60,134 nucleotides of DNA from a virus. Lineage: Duplodnaviria; Caudoviricetes. The stretch spans positions 1-60,134 of the IMG/VR virus record IMGVR_UViG_3300028025_004184; one strand, written 5' to 3'. How positions within the stretch are numbered: the stretch's first letter is position 1; every line of letters begins with the position of its first letter. The position numbers were made by a program, and so were the translations under genes. The notes beneath the pieces were generated by a model that saw only the letters and a list, made by a program, of their open reading frames with translations, was not told the origin of the DNA and searched no databases. This document shows positions 246-52,809 of the stretch, one piece after another.

Positions 246-269
246 GAGGATAAAGACTCGCATTGACTT

Positions 270-643
270 TAGTCGGGACCGTGAAAAAAAGCAGACCTTA
301 GACCTTTTAAGCTCTGTCAGCGTATGCCCCTGAGATAGCATAACTTGTCATCGTGGGATAATGAGACAAGCGGAATGCCCCTAAATCAATGACAATTTAC
401 GCCAAGGTTGATGAAACGAGACTAGTTGGCACAGACTTTGCAAGGAAAGTGTTGAGTACTTGGAAAGGCATAAAACGGCATGTCAAGCAATGACAGCTTA
501 GTTCTTTTGCGCCCTATTGTCAAATTAAAATCATTTATAAAGGAAAACAGCCTAGGCATAACCTAAGCTGTTTTAAAGGTAGGATAAGACTCGCCACCAG
601 CGTTTTGACGGCCTGAAAGGGCCTCTGGTGACTTGCCCGACTA
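270..643 (+). ncRNA. putative structured ncRNA A (family unidentified)
   Basis: Closing helix TAGTCGGG (270-277)/CCCGACTA (636-643), several internal hairpins, no long ORF, motifs shared with 40699-40960. Confidence 0.55.
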
Positions 644-13843: not shown

Positions 13844-13891
13844 ATGGCTAAATGTGGATCAAAAAAAGGTAAAGGAAAAAAAGGGAAGTAG
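13844..13891 (+). CDS. 15-aa basic micropeptide MAKCGSKKGKGKKGK
   Basis: AGGAG RBS; fills the gap between the portal stop and the next ATG. Confidence 0.5.
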   Translation: MAKCGSKKGKGKKGK

Positions 13892-13892
13892 C

Positions 13893-14399
13893 ATGCCAGC
13901 TAAAAGTGATTTTGGTCATAAAAATTGCTTAGAATGCGGTAATGTTATTATTCATAAGATAAAAAGAGATATAGAACGTAAAAAGTTTTGCTCACAGACC
14001 TGTATGGGAACTTATTATGGAAGAAAAAGACCATTAGATCACATGAATAAAATGTGGGTTTTAGGATGTAGTCCAGAAGCTAATGCTAAAAAGGGGCGTA
14101 AAGGAGAAAACCACCCTCAATATAAAAAGGATAGAAGCCAAGTTAAGAGTAAACGCTCTAGATATGAAAATACTGTTTGGACTAGAAGTGTTTTTGAAAA
14201 AGATGATTTTACTTGTCAGGATTGTGGACAACGTGGTGGAAAATTACAAGCCGACCACATAAAACCATACTGCATTTGCTCTGAGGATGAGAAATGGAAT
14301 TTAGAAAATGGAAGAACTTTATGTGTAGCATGTCATAAGAAAACAGATACTTATGGAATTAAAATGGTACATAAATTAAGAAAGGAAAAAGAACAATGA
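13893..14399 (+). CDS. HNH endonuclease
   Basis: CQDCG...ADHIKP...NGRTLCVACHKK plus N-terminal CxxC/CSxxC; ATG 13893 preferred over GTG 13854. Confidence 0.9.
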   Translation: MPAKSDFGHKNCLECGNVIIHKIKRDIERKKFCSQTCMGTYYGRKRPLDHMNKMWVLGCSPEANAKKGRKGENHPQYKKDRSQVKSKRSRYENTVWTRSVFEKDDFTCQDCGQRGGKLQADHIKPYCICSEDEKWNLENGRTLCVACHKKTDTYGIKMVHKLRKEKEQ

Positions 14400-17484: not shown

Positions 17485-17649
17485 GATAAACCCTCAACAA
17501 GCAAGGGAGAAACTCATTGAGGGTGTGTATTTTTTGAGGAAAGGGGGAGTAACCTCTTTTGTAGAATACCAATTATTTACAAACATGTCAATAAAATATA
17601 TTATATATAATTTCAAGTACTTAATTTAATAATGCACATTTACCTAAAA

Positions 17650-17659
17650 CACCCTTATA
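17650..17659 (+). promoter_or_regulatory. putative phage late promoter
   Basis: CACCCTTATATTACAG, also present at 28351. Confidence 0.65.
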
Positions 17660-17686
17660 TTACAGATACTTTCAAAGAGGAAGCTA

Positions 17687-28307: not shown

Positions 28308-28350
28308 ACTACTTTAAGTGATTTTAAGTAGTTATAAATACTAGGATTAA

Positions 28351-28360
28351 CACCCTTATA
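28351..28360 (+). promoter_or_regulatory. putative phage late promoter
   Basis: CACCCTTATA, intergenic. Confidence 0.65.
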
Positions 28361-28375
28361 TTACAGAGGTTTTTA

Positions 28376-38600: not shown

Positions 38601-40256
38601 ATTGACTCAGTAAAAAATCCTACTATAATAGGTAAGAAGTTGGTGTCTGGAATACCTTCCACCACATCGTTCAAATTATCTGGTGTTTCTTCAGCATCTC
38701 TTTCAGCTTTTCAACAAGCTATTGTATTTCCAGCTGATGTGGTTTCTGATAACTCTGTAAATCCAAATAGAGTGTATTTTTCCAAGATTTACCAACCAGA
38801 GGCTGTGCCTCTTGTCAACTATATTGATATTGGAGCAAGAGATAAGAAGATTCAAAGAATCATCGCACTTAGAGATAGTTTAGCTGTTCTAAAAGAAGAG
38901 GGTGTGTACATCATATCAGGGCCTTCTGCTCCTAACTTCTCAGTGAGGCTTTGTGACTCCTCTGCGTTAACTTTCGCACCAGACACGGCTGTTAACTTGA
39001 ACAACCTTGTGTACGTACTAACGAGCCAAGGTGTGGTTACTGTTTCAGAAACAGGTATCCAAGTTATGTCAAGAAATATTGAGAACAAGATACAGGAAGT
39101 GACTACTTCCAAGTTTGATTATAAAATGATGAGCTGGGGACTGTCTTCAGAGTCTGACAGATGTTACATTCTATGGCTTCCAGAAAAGACAACAAACCAA
39201 TATGCAACACAAGCATATAGGTATAATACATTTACTAGAGCTTGGACTAGATGGACAAAGCCAGCTAATTGTGGAGTTGTAAATCCCGCAGATGACAAGA
39301 TGTACCTTGGAGACTCGTCAGGAAGACCTTATGTTCTTCAAGAAAGAAAGAATTTTGAAAGACAAGATCACGCAGACAGAGAGATCATAAAGAGCATACA
39401 GCCTGATGGAGTTAGTGGAACTACTCATACCCTATCATCAGCTTCTGAAATAGCTATTGGTGATGTTATGACTCAGATACAGTACTTAGATATAAATAAA
39501 TTTAATAGATTCTTAAAGAAACTAGATAGGGATAGGTTCTCTTCATCCCCTGATAAATATATAACTCTAAAGGCAGTAGCAGGAGACAGCTTAGGACTTA
39601 AGCTTCAAGAAGTTGAAGCCAAACTACTATCGGATGGGATTATAATAACTCCTAGCAGCTCTGGATCAGATGTAGCAGCAGATATTGCTAATAACTTTAA
39701 CGCAATTGTTACAGTTTTAAACGATCCTCTTACCTTGAATAATTACAAAGACTACAAGTATGTTGAAGACGCACTAACCTACGAAGTACTCATAGTTGGA
39801 GTGAATGTAGGAACTAACTCTGTTACTACTAAGTCACAGAATAAGTTTGTAGCTGGGGATGTGTCCATATTCAAAGGAATACAGTGCATTGTTCAGTACG
39901 CTCCGCAACACTTTGGAAAACCAGAGGCTACTAAGCAGATATCAGAAGGAACGCTAATATTCGACCAGAATAACTTCTGGGGCGGATCTGTTGCCTATTC
40001 TTCAGACAGATCTTACGACTTCTCTAGTATAGAATTTTCAGGAAGAGGACCGGGATACTGGGACGGATACAACTGGGCTAATGCTACTTTTGGTGGAGAA
40101 GGTAATGAAGTTCCTGTGAGAACTTTACTTCCAATTGACAAGTCAAGATGTAGGTACTTGCATGTGCAATTTACCCACATTAACGCAAGAGAACAGTGGA
40201 AACTAATTGGAGTTTCTTTACAGCCTAGAGAAGTGTCTACTAGAGGGTACAGATAA
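35643..40256 (+). CDS. tail tubular protein B / nozzle (P22 gp10 or T7 gp12-like)
   Basis: GL..SPN.L.LP.GAL..ADN...I..RRG N-terminus, NRVYFSK...PEAVP propeller, RYLHVQF C-terminus. Confidence 0.7.
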   Translation: MAVLTIKRGLVTSPNELALPDGALSVADNCVIDSDNIIEPRRGFSEFGNKTDESDSVVKQLMTYKGRIIRHFDSKLSFDSNGNGSFLNFDGSYSELVSRLRIKYFELNSNLYFTTNEGIKKISAKSADDFSTNADYITNAGGVKAVGLEAKLVPNVAGFLPAQSKVAYKVLWARKDANGNIIRGVPSSRKVITNTSTDVNTGESFTVTVYDAGAGIHKSFDSTSSISSGVQTTFLAAAVNITDNTIALTTGATDHNYQTNDLVKLVQNGTDALPTGLSAGNYYVIRVDTNKIKLKTTPTGTEVDITATGVSGIIESTNVGKTITITSHGYEDGDKVRLYGVLPNELDTTKTYYIVNKTTDTFQLSLTSGGAAIYLTKKVGTANIYSGLSSNDFFLFDSPTNKFAAWFNISGEDVSPTSSLLLGRQLIEVPIYKIAIKNKINYASKIAESLYTISDIEVEVGTEVVTVTNRDGGDVLDASQGGMDVTYAAVSKIYDGRTAIGTPANVQITAIVPGEIASKDYFYEVYRTAVVTVQTGLALNDIDPGEEFQKIFESPVSTNGTIPSEVVFDDTLPETFREGGAYLYTNPVTGEGVLQANEAPPISHDVAIFKGSAFYANTKERHRLQFNILSVSQYTSGVSKLFIGNSTKMNTYTFVGKNEILKFTAKKKSETTESSYFDIMSAQNKIKYRVWFDKGGSTPPDQDNCLLLKVPMQTYEDTIQGSVDAFVEAFFDINDFSITNINHEFNSLDDVNSSTETITIPAHGFLDGDTVTFSGTSPTNITNDTVYYIVDKTADTFKVSLSSGGTPVDITAIAGTSRVAQTTVIVTYADNGDADPVVQSSPATGWISPTIIQEGDGENASNNEVLLSGLASQSLSIEDTARSLEKVINKDPTSPVNAFYLSGLNDLPGLLLLESRSLLDDPFYLAFNEEFTDSLGNPIAVFEPSLPVAKTITSIVTSTPEAVFYTTPVLHGLSLNQEVYAYVDATIDSVKNPTIIGKKLVSGIPSTTSFKLSGVSSASLSAFQQAIVFPADVVSDNSVNPNRVYFSKIYQPEAVPLVNYIDIGARDKKIQRIIALRDSLAVLKEEGVYIISGPSAPNFSVRLCDSSALTFAPDTAVNLNNLVYVLTSQGVVTVSETGIQVMSRNIENKIQEVTTSKFDYKMMSWGLSSESDRCYILWLPEKTTNQYATQAYRYNTFTRAWTRWTKPANCGVVNPADDKMYLGDSSGRPYVLQERKNFERQDHADREIIKSIQPDGVSGTTHTLSSASEIAIGDVMTQIQYLDINKFNRFLKKLDRDRFSSSPDKYITLKAVAGDSLGLKLQEVEAKLLSDGIIITPSSSGSDVAADIANNFNAIVTVLNDPLTLNNYKDYKYVEDALTYEVLIVGVNVGTNSVTTKSQNKFVAGDVSIFKGIQCIVQYAPQHFGKPEATKQISEGTLIFDQNNFWGGSVAYSSDRSYDFSSIEFSGRGPGYWDGYNWANATFGGEGNEVPVRTLLPIDKSRCRYLHVQFTHINAREQWKLIGVSLQPREVSTRGYR

Positions 40257-40666
40257 TGCCAAAATTATCGGATATTAGAAGAATTGTTCCTGAAGACTAC
40301 GAAGAAGAATTTCAAGAGTCAGCTGAACTAATAGCTGGCTCTTATAATGAATTTGCTGACGAAGTGTATCAGCTAGTTAATGGTGGACTTGACTTTGATA
40401 ACTTAGCTAGGGCCTCTATTAGCATAGACATAACTTTTGACGCTTCTGGTAATCCTGTTGGAAATGCCAGTATTTCATGCAAACTTGCGTACGTGTCTAT
40501 GGTCCATATTGGAAAGATTCAAAATCTAACCAATAAGTCAGCTAGGATAACTCAAGTTCCCTATATAGACTGGACCTACTCCGGAGGAGGAATTGTTAAG
40601 ATTCTTTACGGAGTTGGATTTACAGCTGGTTCTAAATATAGACTAATATTAGAGCTTATTCAATAG
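40256..40666 (+). CDS. tail-associated structural protein
   Basis: TAATG overlap; LVNGGLDFDNL motif. Confidence 0.6.
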   Translation: MPKLSDIRRIVPEDYEEEFQESAELIAGSYNEFADEVYQLVNGGLDFDNLARASISIDITFDASGNPVGNASISCKLAYVSMVHIGKIQNLTNKSARITQVPYIDWTYSGGGIVKILYGVGFTAGSKYRLILELIQ

Positions 40667-40698
40667 TTTACATAGCTTTACCTATATAGAGCATTAAT

Positions 40699-40960
40699 CT
40701 CTTTTCAATAAAACCAACTCCTTAGTGTGCTTTTAGCTATTTGGGGTGAGGGCTTGGGCTTTTAACCTGAATGTATCTTTTCTACAAAGTTCCAAACTTC
40801 CAATAACTTTGCTTGACTCTCTGGCTTTCCGCTAGGTACTTAGTGGTTTTGCGACACCTAGTCGAGTATTTCGTTTCCTACACCGGCTCGTATATCGGAC
40901 TCGCTTGTAAGTCCTCTATTTCACGGTCCAAAAGAGCAAAAAGAGAAGAAATTAATCTTC
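40699..40960 (-). ncRNA. putative structured ncRNA B, related to 270-643
   Basis: ORF-free gap with its own promoter; GGACCGTGAAA, three hairpins, CGGAAAGCC-N6-TCAA as in ncRNA A. Confidence 0.55.
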
Positions 40961-40966
40961 CTTGCT

Positions 40967-40995
40967 AATATACCATAACTTTTATATACTTGCAA
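40967..40995 (-). promoter_or_regulatory. sigma70-type promoter firing into the noncoding gap
   Basis: TTGCAA-N17-TATATT with TG extended -10. Confidence 0.6.
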
Positions 40996-41032
40996 CTGTG
41001 TGCTAATCTGTATAGGTAAAAGGATGATTTAA

Positions 41033-41042
41033 CACCCTTATA
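41033..41042 (+). promoter_or_regulatory. putative phage late promoter
   Basis: CACCCTTATA upstream of internal virion genes. Confidence 0.65.
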
Positions 41043-41059
41043 ATACAGAGGAATTAACT

Positions 41060-43441
41060 ATGGGAATGCGTTCAAATACAAATCAAGTTGGTCAAGGAAT
41101 GGGCACAGCCCTGACTGAGGAAGAAAAGAGAAAGCAGGAACAAGAACAAGCTCCACAGCCTCAAATCCAACAAACAACATCCGCAGCTCCTCGCATCGGA
41201 GAAGCTCAGGCAACAGCCATGAAAGCGGCTCCAAAAGAGCAGAAAGCTGGAACTGGTACTTTCGCTAATCTTAAAAGTTATATACAGGCTGCTCAGGGCG
41301 GAGGTCAGCAAAGAATTGCTCAGGCCGCAACGCAAAAAGTTCAGAATGTGGCAACTGGTGCTCAGAAGGGTATCCAGCAAGCTCAGAACGTATTTGGAAA
41401 AAAAGTAGAGGCAGGAAGTTTGTCTGGAATAGCTGCTCCGGGAGGAGTAGAGGCGGTTGGAAAAGAAGCCCAAGATATTATTAACGCAGCTAGAAAGGTT
41501 ACATATCAAGCTCCACAGCCAGCTACTGCACCTGCTACTCAGGCCACGGCTCCTGCCACAACAGCTGCAACAGCTCCTTCAGGTGAACAACCACAGCAGT
41601 CAGTTGTAGAACCCACAGTTGCTCAAGCTCAACAGTATTTTACTCCAGAACAGCAAAAGCGTTTTGCAGACATTATTAACGCACAATATGGTGGCCCAGC
41701 ATCTTTACAAGAAGCTGGACTTTATAGCGACATTGCTAAAAAAGCCAGAACAGCTCAAGAAGCAATTGGTCAAACTCAGACAGCCGCTGGAAGAGAGCAG
41801 TTGTTAAGAAATATCTTCAGCCAAGGTAGAGATTATACTAGAGGGCAATCTAAGCTAGATGCTTTACTTTTAAACACATCTCAGCAAGGTGTTGGAGAAT
41901 TACAGAGTCAGGCAAAGCAAGCAGGTAACATTCAGCAGCAAGCAGAACAAGCGCAGACACAATCTGCAAATGAAGCAGCTCAGAGAGCTAAAGAAATTTC
42001 AGATGTGCAACAAGCTTCTAGAAAAGCATTTTTAGAAGGTAGAACTGCTGAAGAAGCAGCTACTGAAACTAGAATGGACAAGCTTATAAAAGATCCAGCA
42101 TTAGATGCTTCTGGAAATAAAATACCTAAACTAGATATGGAAGGAAAGCCTATAGTAGATGCAGCTGGTAATCCAGTTTATCAAACTCAGTGGGACCAGC
42201 TTCCAGAATATTTTAGAGATATTATTAGAAATAAAGAAGCTAATAACAAAGCTATGCAAGCAGAGGCGTTTGCAAATTTAGACTCGTCAACTGGACTCAA
42301 TGAAGCAGGATATAAAAAAGCTCAGGCTAATCTCAAGGCTCAGCAAATAGCATTAGAAAATGCTAAAAATATTAATATGTATAGAGCTATAGGTGGATTG
42401 GCTCCTGATGAAAATGTGGATGAAAAAATTAAAATAGCTCAGCAAAATTTAGATGCTGCAAAATCTGACTTAGCTGGCTACTCAGATTATTTAAAACAGC
42501 GTAAAGATATCCAGAATATGAGCATGAAGCAGCTTAGATTAAGCCCTGAAGAAGCGGCTATTCTGGGGGTATCTTCTGGTGAAGGATTTTATAATGAACT
42601 GCCAACATTAATAAAAGACGTTAACGCAGAAAGATCAAGATTAATTACAAAAGATGAATTTGCTAGACAACAAGCATTAGCACAGTTAGCAGGTACAGAT
42701 ATTTCAAGAGCTTTACAAAAAGATTTAATGTACACAGACGCAGAAAAAGCAGGATCTCAGACATTAAGTAGTTCTTTAGATACTCAAGCAATAAGAAACG
42801 CTCTTAATGAAGCACAAACAAAATTTAAAGAAAGTGCAGAGGCCGCTAATTTAACTGGAAGTGGTAAAAAGAAAGTGTCCAGAGGTAACTGGGCGGGAAC
42901 AAGAACTAAAACATATACAGCTTCACAAGAAGGTAATGTTGCAGATATGTTGCGTCAAGCAGGATATGATGTTTCTGCAGAAAGTCCTGAAGCAGCTAAA
43001 TCATTGCTAACAGATAAAGAAGCTTTAGCTAATTATTTAGGAGCAACAGATACTTCTAGAGGAGATTCTGGGAGTATGTGGGCAGAAGGTGCTGCAAGAA
43101 CAGGAACAGGAGCTGCTATAGGAGCTGCTCTTGGATCATATGTTCCGGTTATAGGAACAGGTGTAGGAGCCGCTATAGGTAGTATGTATGGATCTATTCT
43201 TGGAGGAAATTCTACTCTTTCTAATGTAGTAGGAAATCTAGGTGGAGGTAGAATGAGTGATTCTGCCATGGCAGAAGTAGGTAAAGGTACTGCGAAAGAA
43301 TTAGCAATAAAAGATTTATATAATAAATATAATAAATATTTAGCTGGACAAGGATTTGAAAATAGAGCTAATATAGTAGACTCTGATATTACATCAGCTA
43401 GATCTGCTGCGCTTCAAGATTTATTACGTAGACAAGGCTAA
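41060..43441 (+). CDS. internal virion / ejection protein
   Basis: Ala/Gln-rich helical protein with C-terminal glycine zipper; position after tail genes. Confidence 0.65.
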   Translation: MGMRSNTNQVGQGMGTALTEEEKRKQEQEQAPQPQIQQTTSAAPRIGEAQATAMKAAPKEQKAGTGTFANLKSYIQAAQGGGQQRIAQAATQKVQNVATGAQKGIQQAQNVFGKKVEAGSLSGIAAPGGVEAVGKEAQDIINAARKVTYQAPQPATAPATQATAPATTAATAPSGEQPQQSVVEPTVAQAQQYFTPEQQKRFADIINAQYGGPASLQEAGLYSDIAKKARTAQEAIGQTQTAAGREQLLRNIFSQGRDYTRGQSKLDALLLNTSQQGVGELQSQAKQAGNIQQQAEQAQTQSANEAAQRAKEISDVQQASRKAFLEGRTAEEAATETRMDKLIKDPALDASGNKIPKLDMEGKPIVDAAGNPVYQTQWDQLPEYFRDIIRNKEANNKAMQAEAFANLDSSTGLNEAGYKKAQANLKAQQIALENAKNINMYRAIGGLAPDENVDEKIKIAQQNLDAAKSDLAGYSDYLKQRKDIQNMSMKQLRLSPEEAAILGVSSGEGFYNELPTLIKDVNAERSRLITKDEFARQQALAQLAGTDISRALQKDLMYTDAEKAGSQTLSSSLDTQAIRNALNEAQTKFKESAEAANLTGSGKKKVSRGNWAGTRTKTYTASQEGNVADMLRQAGYDVSAESPEAAKSLLTDKEALANYLGATDTSRGDSGSMWAEGAARTGTGAAIGAALGSYVPVIGTGVGAAIGSMYGSILGGNSTLSNVVGNLGGGRMSDSAMAEVGKGTAKELAIKDLYNKYNKYLAGQGFENRANIVDSDITSARSAALQDLLRRQG

Positions 43442-48058: not shown

Positions 48059-48334
48059 ATGCAAGAGCAATTAGACAAAATTGAAGAAAAAGTTGACAGA
48101 ATTGAGTCTAAGATATCTAACATAGATGTTACTCTTGCTAAGCAAGAAGTAAACTTAGCTGAACATATGAGAAGAACTGAGTTGAATGAAATAGCGGTTG
48201 AAAAAATAAGAGAAACATTAGTTCCCATAAACAAACACGTAAATATGTTAGAAGGTGTTTTTAAATTTTTTGGACTAATATCTATTTTATTAGGAATTGT
48301 AGTTTCTTTATTAAAACTAATTAGTTTGATGTAA
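48059..48334 (+). CDS. holin/XhlA-like membrane protein
   Basis: Coiled coil plus a single C-terminal TM segment. Confidence 0.55.
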   Translation: MQEQLDKIEEKVDRIESKISNIDVTLAKQEVNLAEHMRRTELNEIAVEKIRETLVPINKHVNMLEGVFKFFGLISILLGIVVSLLKLISLM

Positions 48335-48956
48335 AATATTCAAAAATTAAGTTTCTAGTATGTGTAGCTTTTTTTCTACAAACTTTAATAATAGTAGTAG
48401 CATGAAGCCCTAATTCTTGTGCCGCAATAGACGCTGATTGATAAATCACTCCAGTATTAATACAAATAACAGGCTTGCATCCATGACCTCTGAGTTTTCT
48501 AGTTTCAGATATCTTTTTCTTAGTTCCCTCTGACCTTAGTTTTCCATACATTGGGTTATTAATACCTTTTACCTTTTCTGATGTTTTTCTTTTTGATTCT
48601 TCACTTCTCTTCTTGCCATACATCGGATTTCCTTTGCCAGAATATAAAACAGATCTATATTTTATAGTAGACTCTTGAGCTTTAAATCCCCACGCACCCT
48701 CTCCACCATTAGTAAGATTTGCTTCACAATAACCTAAAGATTTATACAGCTTTATTAATTCAACTTCTTTTTTATAAGCTTCTTTTTGAGTTAAATTTTT
48801 TAAAATTATTTGAACTTTATAACCAATTTTAGAAATGCTTTTCCAGTATTTGTTCCTACTCTTTTTCTGAAAAGCTCTATCCCCACTACCTTTCCCTATA
48901 TAAAATGGAGTATTATTATCAATTCTTATGTGTCTATAAATATAATACTTATTCAT
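48321..48956 (-). CDS. GIY-YIG homing endonuclease with NUMOD3/NUMOD1-type repeats
   Basis: YYIY...FYIGKG..R, NLTNGGEG, NPMYGK twice, KPVICINTG. Confidence 0.9.
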   Translation of the reverse strand: MNKYYIYRHIRIDNNTPFYIGKGSGDRAFQKKSRNKYWKSISKIGYKVQIILKNLTQKEAYKKEVELIKLYKSLGYCEANLTNGGEGAWGFKAQESTIKYRSVLYSGKGNPMYGKKRSEESKRKTSEKVKGINNPMYGKLRSEGTKKKISETRKLRGHGCKPVICINTGVIYQSASIAAQELGLHATTIIKVCRKKATHTRNLIFEYFTSN

Positions 48957-49665: not shown

Positions 49666-50229
49666 TCATGATCCTACAATCCAATGTTTTTCATTAGCTT
49701 TATACTTCGGAAGTTCTTCTTGCTCAAATAAAGCCTTATCTAAAAACCTAATTCTATACTGTGGATAAAGCATAAGATAGCCATCATTTGTCTGAATGGC
49801 GTGTAACTGTTTCCAGTGAGTAGGGTGGCGAGAAAACCCCTCTCCAACAAAATCTATAGTAAAAAGATACTTTCCAGACTTGGCTGGTATCATATCAGGC
49901 TTAACTTCACACTCAGCGTACCTAAGAGTTTCCATAACAAAAAAGTCAATGTCATCGCTTACACAGTCCCACATCTGAGCGTCTTGAAGGTTTATAAGCC
50001 CATTAAACTCGTCCTCTCTAAAGGTTATGGCATGTGCCGGTAGTCCAGTAAAAAGAGCACCATTGTCCAATAAAATGCTAAATTGCAAAGCTTGGTTTTG
50101 TCTAGCCCTTACAGACACTAAATGTCCAGCCGTTTTGCCATAGAAGTTAGAGTCATCATTAAATAAGAACCTATTCCAAACATACACACGAATTGGAGGC
50201 AAGTTAGCGTTACTCATCCCCAAACCCAC
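49666..50229 (-). CDS. hypothetical phage protein
   Basis: Long ORF; probable start MSNANLPP at 50217. Confidence 0.75.
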   Translation of the reverse strand: MGLGMSNANLPPIRVYVWNRFLFNDDSNFYGKTAGHLVSVRARQNQALQFSILLDNGALFTGLPAHAITFREDEFNGLINLQDAQMWDCVSDDIDFFVMETLRYAECEVKPDMIPAKSGKYLFTIDFVGEGFSRHPTHWKQLHAIQTNDGYLMLYPQYRIRFLDKALFEQEELPKYKANEKHWIVGS

Positions 50230-51143
50230 TTAGGTTTACCACTCAACACTACCATAGAGTCTAGCGTGAATTGTTTTGGTTTAATCGCTAAGCTAGGGGC
50301 CTCAAACTGAGCGTTTAGCAAAGCTTCATCCAGTACACTGTGTAAGCCCCTAGCTCCTAATCCCTTCTCAATAGCCTTCTGCGCTATGATGTTAATAGCA
50401 CTATCTTCTACCACAAGCTCAATACCTTCGCTCAAAAACCACTCTTTAAACGAGTTTAGAATAGACCCCTTAGAGTCACGTAGGATCTTCCTGTAATCGT
50501 CAAATTTAAGCTCCTGAAGCTGTGTGATAACCGGGAATCTTCCAAGAAACTCAGGTATCATGCCAAAGTCCGTTAAACTCTGCACACTTGACGACTCTAG
50601 CCCTATAAAAGCACCAGAGCATATAAACATAATATCTTTAGTGTTCATCTTCTTATCATACTCGCCATTCTGAGAGTATTTAGAAATATATGGAACATCA
50701 CTACCTTCCAGTAGTTTTAGAAGTGACTGCTGCACTCCAAGACCATTAACATCTGGTCCATTTCCGTCATTAGATTTTTTACGAAGCTTATCTATCTCAT
50801 CGATGTATATAATAGACTTTGAGGCCTTATACTCGTTGCCTTCGCATATACCCAGTAAGTCTGTTATAAGTTCTTCTACACTTCTTCCCTGATATCCAGA
50901 GGAAGTGAACTGAGTTGCGTCACTTGTCAAAAAGTTAACGCCTAGTATTTGAGCCAGTATGGACACTAGATATGTCTTGCCACACCCAGTAGGTCCGATT
51001 AATAGCACGTTAGACTTTTTAATAGTACTGCCGTTCATTCTTTTAAAATGGTTATAAGCGGCCACAGACAAGGCTCTTTTAGTTTTCTCATGACCGATAA
51101 CGTACTCATCTAGCTGCTTTTTAATTTCTTCTGGAGTTTTCAT
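50214..51143 (-). CDS. clpX: ClpX-like AAA+ ATPase lacking the N-terminal Zn domain and IGF loop
   Basis: LDEYVIGH, KSNVLLIGPTGCGKT, IYIDEIDK, GVQQSLLKLLEG, PEFLGRF, GARGL. Confidence 0.9.
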   Translation of the reverse strand: MKTPEEIKKQLDEYVIGHEKTKRALSVAAYNHFKRMNGSTIKKSNVLLIGPTGCGKTYLVSILAQILGVNFLTSDATQFTSSGYQGRSVEELITDLLGICEGNEYKASKSIIYIDEIDKLRKKSNDGNGPDVNGLGVQQSLLKLLEGSDVPYISKYSQNGEYDKKMNTKDIMFICSGAFIGLESSSVQSLTDFGMIPEFLGRFPVITQLQELKFDDYRKILRDSKGSILNSFKEWFLSEGIELVVEDSAINIIAQKAIEKGLGARGLHSVLDEALLNAQFEAPSLAIKPKQFTLDSMVVLSGKPKWVWG

Positions 51144-52038: not shown

Positions 52039-52809
52039 TTAAAAAGTCAAACTAACTTTTTTGTTTCTTACTTCAATAAACTTTCTAGCATGTGAGAAGT
52101 TTTCTTTCTTAACATCTCTAGAGAACTTGATATCAATAGGAGCTGGAAGCAATGGACATGCCGAGAACACTACATTAATGATACCGAATGGAGTAGAAAC
52201 TTCTTCTGTGATCTCATCTTCAATAAGAGCTTTATCACATGTAACATCAGCTACTTGATCAGCTTGTCCAGTTTTTACAGCGTTCTCTCCAAAGCTCCAA
52301 AGCTCATTAACGATAGAGGCTTCGTAGTCTTTTAGAGGAATACCGATTCGTTTAGCAGCAGCTTTGTTCATGCCAGACAATACTTGATGAATTAGATCAA
52401 GTCTAGAATCTAGTTCTCCGGGAACTTGCCCAGACAGTCCTGAGATTGCACCTCTGTGACTCATCAATGTTCCAGATGGAGTGATGTATCGAATACCGAG
52501 TTGCTGAACTACTTGATAGCCCATAGATGCAGCTGATAGTGTAATTGTGTGAACAGGAATCTTTAGTGACTTAATTGTATCAATAAATCTTAGACCGTCC
52601 GCAACAGATCCACCCGGAGTGTCTAGAACTAAATAAAGCTTATTTGAAGACGTAGACTTAGCAAATACTTCCATGATCTTTTTAGCAACATACAGTCCAG
52701 TAAATGGCTGGTTAAAAACTACACTATTATCTTTAGTAAGTGTAATTTGTGCATTTTTAGCGAAGGCAGTATTGCAAATTAAAGCAATAATCATAATTAA
52801 TTTTAACAT
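52039..52809 (-). CDS. ClpP/crotonase-fold serine protease with signal peptide
   Basis: LDTPGGSV..G, AASMG (Ser), LMSHR (His); N-terminal MLKLIMIIALICNTAFA. Confidence 0.8.
   Translation of the reverse strand: MLKLIMIIALICNTAFAKNAQITLTKDNSVVFNQPFTGLYVAKKIMEVFAKSTSSNKLYLVLDTPGGSVADGLRFIDTIKSLKIPVHTITLSAASMGYQVVQQLGIRYITPSGTLMSHRGAISGLSGQVPGELDSRLDLIHQVLSGMNKAAAKRIGIPLKDYEASIVNELWSFGENAVKTGQADQVADVTCDKALIEDEITEEVSTPFGIINVVFSACPLLPAPIDIKFSRDVKKENFSHARKFIEVRNKKVSLTF

Follow-up and report, generated by a model that had tools for sequence, protein, structure and literature searches.

Why would a phage leave 393 nucleotides (nt) free of genes between two of its late transcription units? The question is raised by the IMG/VR virus record IMGVR_UViG_3300028025_004184 (60,134 nt; estimated completeness 71%), which we analyzed over its whole length and refer to as the window. 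Judged by its genes, the window comes from an uncultured, podovirus-like lytic phage. The gap without open reading frames (ORFs) at 40667-41059 separates an ORF of 136 amino acids (aa; 40256-40666) from one of 793 aa (41060-43441), and with them two late plus-strand transcription units. A sequence-only reading had proposed that the minus strand of this gap encodes a structured non-coding RNA (ncRNA), termed B, and that a second RNA in the window, ncRNA A, is its paralog. Comparative analysis leads us to conclude that B is a real structured RNA with a conserved fold. The predicted gene stands alone and yields a folded RNA about 250 nt long, from approximately 40960 to approximately 40708 on the minus strand, and B belongs to an uncatalogued RNA family that includes ncRNA A, RNAs of unrelated phages and a few bacterial copies.

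A search with the two flanking proteins retrieved five related viral contigs (L003 to L007). All five keep the gene order, with an ORF of 135-138 aa, a gap and a large ORF. The gap is 1002 nt long in L006 and 375-416 nt in the other relatives. Four contigs align with the window across about 260 nt of the gap and carry the same element of about 250 nt, with the junction motifs retained and the stems preserved through double changes. The synteny of the gap, which had been suggested as a check, therefore holds in all five relatives for gene order and in four for the RNA. Among the relatives the 129-nt core of B is 84-92% identical to the window; the corresponding values for the flanking ORFs are 62-70% (136-aa ORF) and 52-61% (793-aa ORF).

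Evidence for a structured RNA comes from the pattern of changes in eight B-type sequences. Pairing is preserved in 99.7% of the 288 pair cells, and 10 of 36 pairs are changed on both sides, a number reached by none of 500 shuffles. When the partner was slid by 1-3 columns as a control, pairing fell to 31-41%. In the core, 22 of the 31 variable columns fall in pairs. Outside it, 5 of 8 pairs of helix H4 and two pairs of outer P1 (UA to AU and UA to CG) are changed on both sides, and RNAalifold found double changes among the relatives in the terminal stem as well. The predicted features of the locus are as follows.

40967..40995, minus strand: sigma-70-type promoter with -35 box TTGCAA (40995-40990), 17-nt spacer and TGn-extended -10 box TATATT (40972-40967)
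40945..40960, minus strand: 5' hairpin GAAGA-UUAAUU-UCUUC, paired by RNAalifold, with AU to GC double changes in relatives
40938..40944, minus strand: outer P1, 5' strand UCUUUUU, pairing with 40782-40776
40816..40937, minus strand: conserved core with P1, P2 and a four-way junction with three hairpins
40937-40931 with 40822-40816, minus strand: inner P1
40929-40924 with 40831-40823, minus strand: P2, GG-A-CCG with CGG-AAAG-CC, containing the A / AANG internal loop
within 40816..40937, minus strand: core junction UGAAAUAG
40919-40892, minus strand: hairpin H1
40890-40863, minus strand: hairpin H2
40861-40832, minus strand: hairpin H3, abutting P2
40784..40812, minus strand: hairpin H4 (GCAAAGUU / AACUUUGU), enclosed by outer P1
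40776..40782, minus strand: outer P1, 3' strand GAAAAGA, pairing with 40944-40938
40706..40767, minus strand: 3' domain (RNAalifold); the small hairpin GGUU/AGCC occupies 40767-40757, and the long terminal stem at 40755-40711 has UUUUA at its end

Most structural elements of the sequence-only reading reappear in this fold. The motifs GGACCGTGAAA (40929-40919, minus strand) and CGGAAAGCC (40831-40823, minus strand) are present. So are the three hairpins GGACT/AGTCC, CGAG/CTCG and CTAGGT/ACCTAG and the hairpin GCAAAGTT/AACTTTGT (40812-40784), all of which keep their pairing through double changes in relatives. The suggested closing helix CTCTTTT/AAAAGAG, which would have extended to 40705-40699, has to be abandoned, since covariation instead pairs 40944-40938 with 40782-40776. 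The 5' hairpin may serve to stabilize the 5' end. The sequence of P2 is compatible with a three-base bulge (AAN) and one possible G-A pair, while the second position is Watson-Crick. In a kink-turn motif a three-base bulge is followed by tandem sheared G-A pairs; the A opposite AANG may resemble half of a kink-turn, and this asymmetric internal loop could bend P2.

A protein-coding explanation of the gap was considered and rejected. The only plus-strand frame in it (40813-40968, 51 aa, TTG start) has 9, 9 and 13 variable columns at the three codon positions, and the majority of substitutions replace the residue. It shows no coding signature, and B is not a protein gene.

On which strand is the RNA made? 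Pairs of G and U on the minus strand would read as A-C mismatches on the plus strand, and the eight B-type sequences contain 39 G-U cells and no A-C cell when read on the minus strand. The promoter scan found TTGCAA-N17-TATATT at 40995-40967 (minus strand) with a TG preceding the -10 box, although the scan by itself is at chance level, with 3 sites found versus 2.5 +/- 1.5 in shuffles. The promoter proposed earlier is therefore backed by its conservation and not by the scan: the TGn-extended -10 box is conserved in 7 of 8 B-type sequences, and 5 of 6 aligned gaps have TTGCAA, TTGCCA or TTGTTA at the -35 position. The G-U count and the conserved promoter together argue that the RNA is transcribed from the minus strand, antisense to its neighbors as had been claimed. 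From the promoter the RNA is predicted to start at about 40961-40959. Since a terminator scan raised no flag there, we can only infer the 3' end, which probably lies near 40710-40706. A weak hint of expression comes from one metatranscriptome run, in which a single 205-nt contig, differing at 11 positions, lies wholly inside 40739-40943; both flanking genes are covered by contigs of this run as well, and its contigs are strandless and could stem from DNA carry-over.

Is B restricted to this phage lineage? We defined the family by a P1 helix, by a P2 helix of 2+3 bp in which AANG faces a single A, by the junction U(G/U)AAA, and by an H3 that abuts the 3' strand of P2; all of these are found in B. 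The two junction motifs at a distance of 70-100 nt occur at 34 loci in viral contigs. By eye these were sorted into nine B-type loci, ten diverse non-coding loci (nine distinct), one unclear locus (L144) and 14 GC-rich coding loci. A model built from B-type sequences alone (R1) was run on 25 of the 34, leaving out seven duplicates and two near-identical B-type copies (L143 and L153). R1 matched all seven B-type loci and all nine distinct diverse phage RNAs (E 1e-12 to 0.012), and it matched none of the eight coding loci, nor L144. The last locus (601-702 of an IMG/VR contig of 36,548 nt) has both anchors, appears to be non-coding and contains plausible hairpins; possibly it has diverged from the rest of the family and has a shortened H3.

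In the family alignment of 25 distinct sequences, which was fitted to the model, 93.1% of 768 cells are paired and 26 of 33 pairs are changed on both sides, compared with 29-39% pairing in slid controls. The P1 sequences of the diverse RNAs are unrelated to each other yet still pair. P2 also covaries within the family, as seen in L292 and in L332 (AG / CU). The phage loci of the family span 41 to 57% GC, and their helices are variable while junction and loop bases are near-invariant. The structural claim of the sequence-only reading is thus borne out by compensatory changes in B-type sequences and in the wider family.

A stricter pattern retrieved 17 metagenome loci, all of which score at least 38.7 bits with the family model R2, whereas anchor-bearing decoys reach a maximum of 22.5 bits. 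An nhmmer profile run over 123 loci added a single new member. Two wider nets were discarded: a scan of viral contigs for a 14-nt motif gave at least 116 loci, mostly by chance, and a pattern with the 3' anchor only gave 10 loci in viral contigs, of which four were already known and six did not fit the model. The strict two-anchor pattern had no match in 185,579 species genomes. Neither the B region nor one diverse family member matched GenBank phages by blastn. The metagenomic carriers come from freshwater, soil and subsurface samples, according to the labels of four runs. Five other phage contigs have the RNA in gaps that span 0.5-1 kb without ORFs, and there it has the same orientation as the neighboring small early-type genes; the antisense orientation of B is consequently not a trait of the family. 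Reading of the sequences often reveals a -10-like box directly upstream of P1 in other members. Of 12 loci outside the A and B types, four (G002, G003, G004 and L302) have a gene for a single-strand annealing recombinase, ERF or RecT, at a distance of no more than about 1.2 kb; G002 and G003 are related to each other. ERF lies downstream of the RNA in L163 and L167, and RecT upstream in L164 and downstream in L302.

The relation between B and ncRNA A is supported by two lines of evidence.

264..390, plus strand: core of ncRNA A, with the same P1/P2/junction/H3 plan as B

R1 scores this segment at 16.5 bits (E 0.006), above all 87 decoys that carry the same two anchors (9 viral-contig loci and 78 genome loci). 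The nine viral-contig decoys, which match the pattern in coding DNA, scored below E 10. Just five of the 80 pattern-bearing genome loci obtained a score, and the best non-member reached 15.1 bits. Moreover, each type is found once in the complete relative G010, where the A-type copy is L292:1501-1625. Between ncRNA A and this ortholog 17 pairs are identical, eight are changed on both sides and none on one side, with eight unaligned or broken. Three of the eight doubly changed pairs lie in P2, which is rebuilt as CC-A-GCG / CGC-AAGG-GG in L292 compared with GG-A-CCG / CGG-AAUG-CC in ncRNA A; H3 is shared. Because a model made only from B finds A, and because the ortholog of A keeps compensated pairs, the paralogy proposed earlier is supported, and A and B are diverged members of one RNA family. 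The G010 copy was the only further A-type copy found; G007, a relative of 95% completeness, shows none. Folding of ncRNA A as a single sequence was uninformative (z -1.49), and a global MAFFT alignment of A and B did not anchor the shared motifs, so that the model-based alignment was used instead. A strong terminator-like hairpin with a T-run is present in ncRNA A at about 548-580. As a separate observation, AGGATAA(A)GACTCGC occurs as a direct repeat on either side of ncRNA A with its terminator (247-263 and 583-598, plus strand).

Two of the 80 pattern-bearing loci in species genomes are real family members. A model search of the bacterial order to which they belong gave five copies in 4 of 38 genomes, one genome having two copies.

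G011:C47, G011:C109, G012:C393, G046:C19 and G048:C98: contigs that carry the bacterial copies

Three of these five contigs contain housekeeping genes (lgt, lnt, purH, an HrpB-type helicase gene, tRNA-Val), and copy L225 converges on the adjoining tRNA-Val gene. The other two are short contigs without housekeeping genes, and three of the five copies lie no more than 350 nt from a contig end. Direct repeats flank all five copies (L218, L225, L330, L331, L332). They measure about 8-14 nt, are in some cases made imperfect by a mismatch or indel, and are placed some 50-57 nt ahead of P1 and some 92-98 nt beyond the core. The repeats of L218 and L332 are exact over 11 nt, and none of 200 shuffles of either locus did as well. 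Among 17 members from phages and metagenomes, B-type loci included, such repeats reached significance in none.

We regard the family as new, although orphan structured phage RNAs are already known as a kind. We compared the whole window with the 4227 models of Rfam 15, which include ribozymes, riboswitches, packaging RNA (pRNA), GOLLD, ROOL and HEARO, and found no match at the gathering score. With E up to 10, the B region matched only HOTAIR_1 (13.5 bits, E 7.5) and the A region only ZEB2_AS1_4 (E 3.4). Ten diverse members yielded two irrelevant weak matches, and the bacterial copies only the neighboring tRNA and weak unrelated ones. The literature searched contained no description of such an RNA; this includes the passages searched in 2026 preprints on mining of non-coding elements, whose supplements could list it. 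GOLLD (RF01998), ROOL (RF03087) and rnaC/rnaD of T4 are stand-alone structured RNAs of phages and mobile DNA that were found by comparison, are patchily distributed and have orphan functions. B resembles them as a stand-alone structured phage RNA gene with patchy distribution. As an RNA it is much smaller than GOLLD and ROOL and matches neither model, and in its family only L225 lies beside a tRNA gene.

What might such an RNA do? We consider it an even call that B is a stand-alone RNA that acts in trans and is recognized by its shape, as a decoy or aptamer. Host RNA polymerase would transcribe B early. The folded RNA would then bind a partner common to many bacteria, either a protein machine or a small molecule, and would act as a decoy or sponge, without base-pairing to the message of the opposite strand. 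Recognition by shape is suggested by the free covariation of the helices around junction and internal-loop bases that do not change. Six RNA-bearing phage records have no protein in common to more than two of them (blastp, 1e-4), which suggests that the partner is not encoded by the phage and that the RNA acts alone or on a component conserved among hosts. A search of the rest of the window for a complementary target of the invariant H2 loop found none beyond chance. This, together with the variable orientation and the conservation of pairing and junction, speaks against an antisense mechanism.

In architecture B is similar to aptamers with four-way junctions such as SAM-I (RF00162): it is closed by P1, has covarying helices, an asymmetric loop in P2 and an invariant junction, and possibly a contact between loops. 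It differs from riboswitch aptamers in that no Rfam aptamer matches and no gene follows on its own strand. Downstream of B the minus strand is antisense to the 136-aa ORF, and the nearest minus-strand ORF has 37 aa and a TTG start; B is therefore not a cis regulator or riboswitch leader. A precedent is the merRNA of Bdellovibrio, an aptamer without a downstream gene and a possible ligand sponge. The contact between loops is predicted only and weakly supported: GGU in the H2 loop and ACC in the H3 loop are complementary, and two of eight sequences have GGC/GCC instead, which makes one covarying pair.

Several observations weigh against a trans-acting shape-recognized RNA, or against the evidence on which it is built. 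B is antisense to a late operon, so that a local role is possible. Its strand and transcript ends are deduced from sequence. Folding of B as a single sequence gives energies that do not stand out from those of shuffles (z -0.49 for the minus and +0.09 for the plus strand), so the case for the RNA rests on comparison. The family alignments were fitted to the model, which biases the pair counts towards the model structure, and since members were retrieved with two fixed anchor motifs, the invariance of these anchors is partly given by construction. The complementarity of 3 nt between H2 and H3 is at chance in the B-type sequences (133-301 of 500 shuffles do as well), and shuffles also equal it across the family. 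Finally, the B-type RNA was lost at the locus in one of the five relatives, L006, and B must therefore be dispensable or replaceable. There (L006:1990-2991) the promoter persists, as does the 5' hairpin in its first half, and behind the promoter a 180-aa minus-strand ORF with a DUF559 nuclease fold and a zinc ribbon takes the place of the RNA. The gap of L006 also contains about 340 nt of unrelated, structured-looking sequence that matches neither the family model nor Rfam.

A wider form of the trans-acting reading, which we put forward only tentatively, is that the whole family constitutes a new RNA class that acts in trans and passes between unrelated phages and a single bacterial lineage, either a pocket-forming aptamer or decoy or a new ribozyme. 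If this were true, a pocket made of the junction and the internal loop could soak up a signaling nucleotide or a conserved host or defense protein early in infection, and the phage lineage might keep the paralogs A and B for two targets or for two times of infection. Very few structured phage RNAs have a known function, and each one solved has revealed new biology. The family is compact: its core measures about 125 nt, and its fold is well supported and absent from Rfam 15. Two paralogs in one genome and the repeated adjacency to ERF/RecT offer handles for functional work.

A new self-cleaving or otherwise catalytic RNA is improbable but the best of the remaining explanations. The UGAAAUAG junction and the A / AANG loop would form its active site, and in the other phages the RNA would process the operon transcript that contains it. 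Variable helices around invariant junction and loop bases are typical of ribozymes as they are of aptamers, and the co-orientation of the RNA inside strings of early genes in five other contigs would suit processing. Against this, B carries a promoter of its own and is followed by no gene that it might process, no Rfam ribozyme matches even at E up to 10, and no cleavage site can be named. The anchor invariance that suggests an active site is, as said, partly imposed by the search pattern.

More doubtful still is a cis-antisense or transcription-interference regulator of the tail-gene block, which would time or process expression of the 793-aa gene. An early minus-strand RNA could pair with late mRNA that reads through the gap, or the promoter could collide with late transcription. 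The place would be suitable: B is opposite to a block of plus-strand genes that spans 43 kb (5.2-48.3 kb, the remaining genes being on the minus strand), its promoter lies 65-93 nt upstream of the ATG of the 793-aa ORF and beside one copy of a repeated plus-strand motif (41029-41048), and the position is syntenic in all five relatives. A cis-antisense RNA works by complementarity and overlaps its target ORF, or the ribosome-binding site of that ORF, on the other strand; lambda oop and P22 sar are short antisense transcripts from host-type promoters that act by complementarity and overlap their targets. B shares with them the short transcript, the host-type promoter and the direction opposite to a phage operon. 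Unlike oop and sar, however, B has relatives that are co-oriented with their neighbors, and its predicted transcript (about 40960-40708, with inferred ends) fits into the space from the stop codon of the 136-aa ORF (40666) to the ATG of the 793-aa ORF (41060) and overlaps neither. Selection has kept internal pairing rather than sequence, and other family members, paralog A among them, occur in different contexts and orientations.

We regard as equally doubtful that B is the RNA of a small selfish or mobile element, such as a guide or recognition RNA or a homing target, which spreads between phages and into chromosomes. The patchy occurrence in unrelated phages without common proteins and in 4 of 38 genomes of one bacterial order would be expected of such an element. 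Direct repeats also flank some copies, namely the 11-nt repeats of L218 and L332, the shorter or inexact ones of the other bacterial copies and the repeat around ncRNA A. Nuclease genes are likewise close by: HNH-type genes adjoin the RNA in L167 and L304, and the DUF559 and zinc-ribbon endonuclease gene replaces it in L006. On the other hand, no transposase, integrase, reverse transcriptase, TnpB or IscB was found beside any copy examined, the 17 phage and metagenome members lack significant flanking repeats, and neither HEARO nor other element RNAs in Rfam gave a match.

An assembly RNA of the phi29 pRNA type, in which loop-paired RNAs would form a ring with the portal and packaging motor or in tail assembly, is very unlikely. 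The pRNA (RF00044) is encoded by the phage, has a host-type promoter, pairs its 5' and 3' ends below a multi-helix junction and has complementary loops. Its carriers are phi29-like phages with their own packaging ATPase system, protein-primed replication and intermolecular loop-loop pairing. B resembles it in several respects: it is encoded by a phage within the block of virion genes, has a host-type promoter, pairs its ends in a long helix, and the short complementarity of the H2 and H3 loops includes the covarying position. B has, however, a four-way instead of a three-way junction and two paralogs per genome, and it does not match RF00044. Pfam assigns the window proteins a T4-type large terminase and a P22/SU10-type portal, unlike phi29, and other members of the family reside in early recombination regions next to ERF or RecT. 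The loop pairing is also at chance. Packaging, one of several functions that the sequence-only reading had listed, does not fit the gene set of this phage in its phi29 form; none of the listed functions was confirmed.

Hardly credible is an element that works in the DNA or at transcript ends (a terminator, insulator or origin) and not as an RNA: the location between two late transcription units and hairpin-plus-T features would suit it, but one would expect of it neither so many helices, with 10 pairs compensated on both sides, nor invariant G-U pairs on one strand, the same fold recurs in quite different contexts, and GC skew shows no switch at 40.8 kb. The skew tracks gene direction only and lends no support to a replication origin or to the replication primer suggested earlier.

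The surroundings of B fit the assignment of the phage. Besides the terminase and portal, Pfam identified fragments of a D5-type primase and of a family A DNA polymerase in the window, and a weak match to the SU10 adaptor below the cutoff. The portal protein matched only distant cultured phages (best 26.5% identity), and the phage with this best match (CP017838.1) has no copy of the RNA. A 20-nt motif, TTAACACCCTTATAWTACAG, is present in three plus-strand copies (17646-17665, 28347-28366 and 41029-41048; 0.01 expected by chance), each directly upstream of a gene start (17687, 28376 and 41060); it probably serves as a late promoter of the phage or as a signal for processing. Upstream of ncRNA A (about 228-246) stands a look-alike that is one base longer, in agreement with the late-motif variant from which the sequence-only reading had suggested that A and B may be expressed at different times. 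Two genes of the homing-endonuclease type are located elsewhere in the window, an HNH gene directly after the portal gene (13854-14399, plus strand) and a NUMOD3-motif gene at the switch between the plus- and minus-strand blocks (48321-48956, minus strand). The minus-strand, early block further encodes a ClpX-like AAA ATPase (50214-51143, minus strand) and a ClpP-family protease (52039-52809, minus strand).

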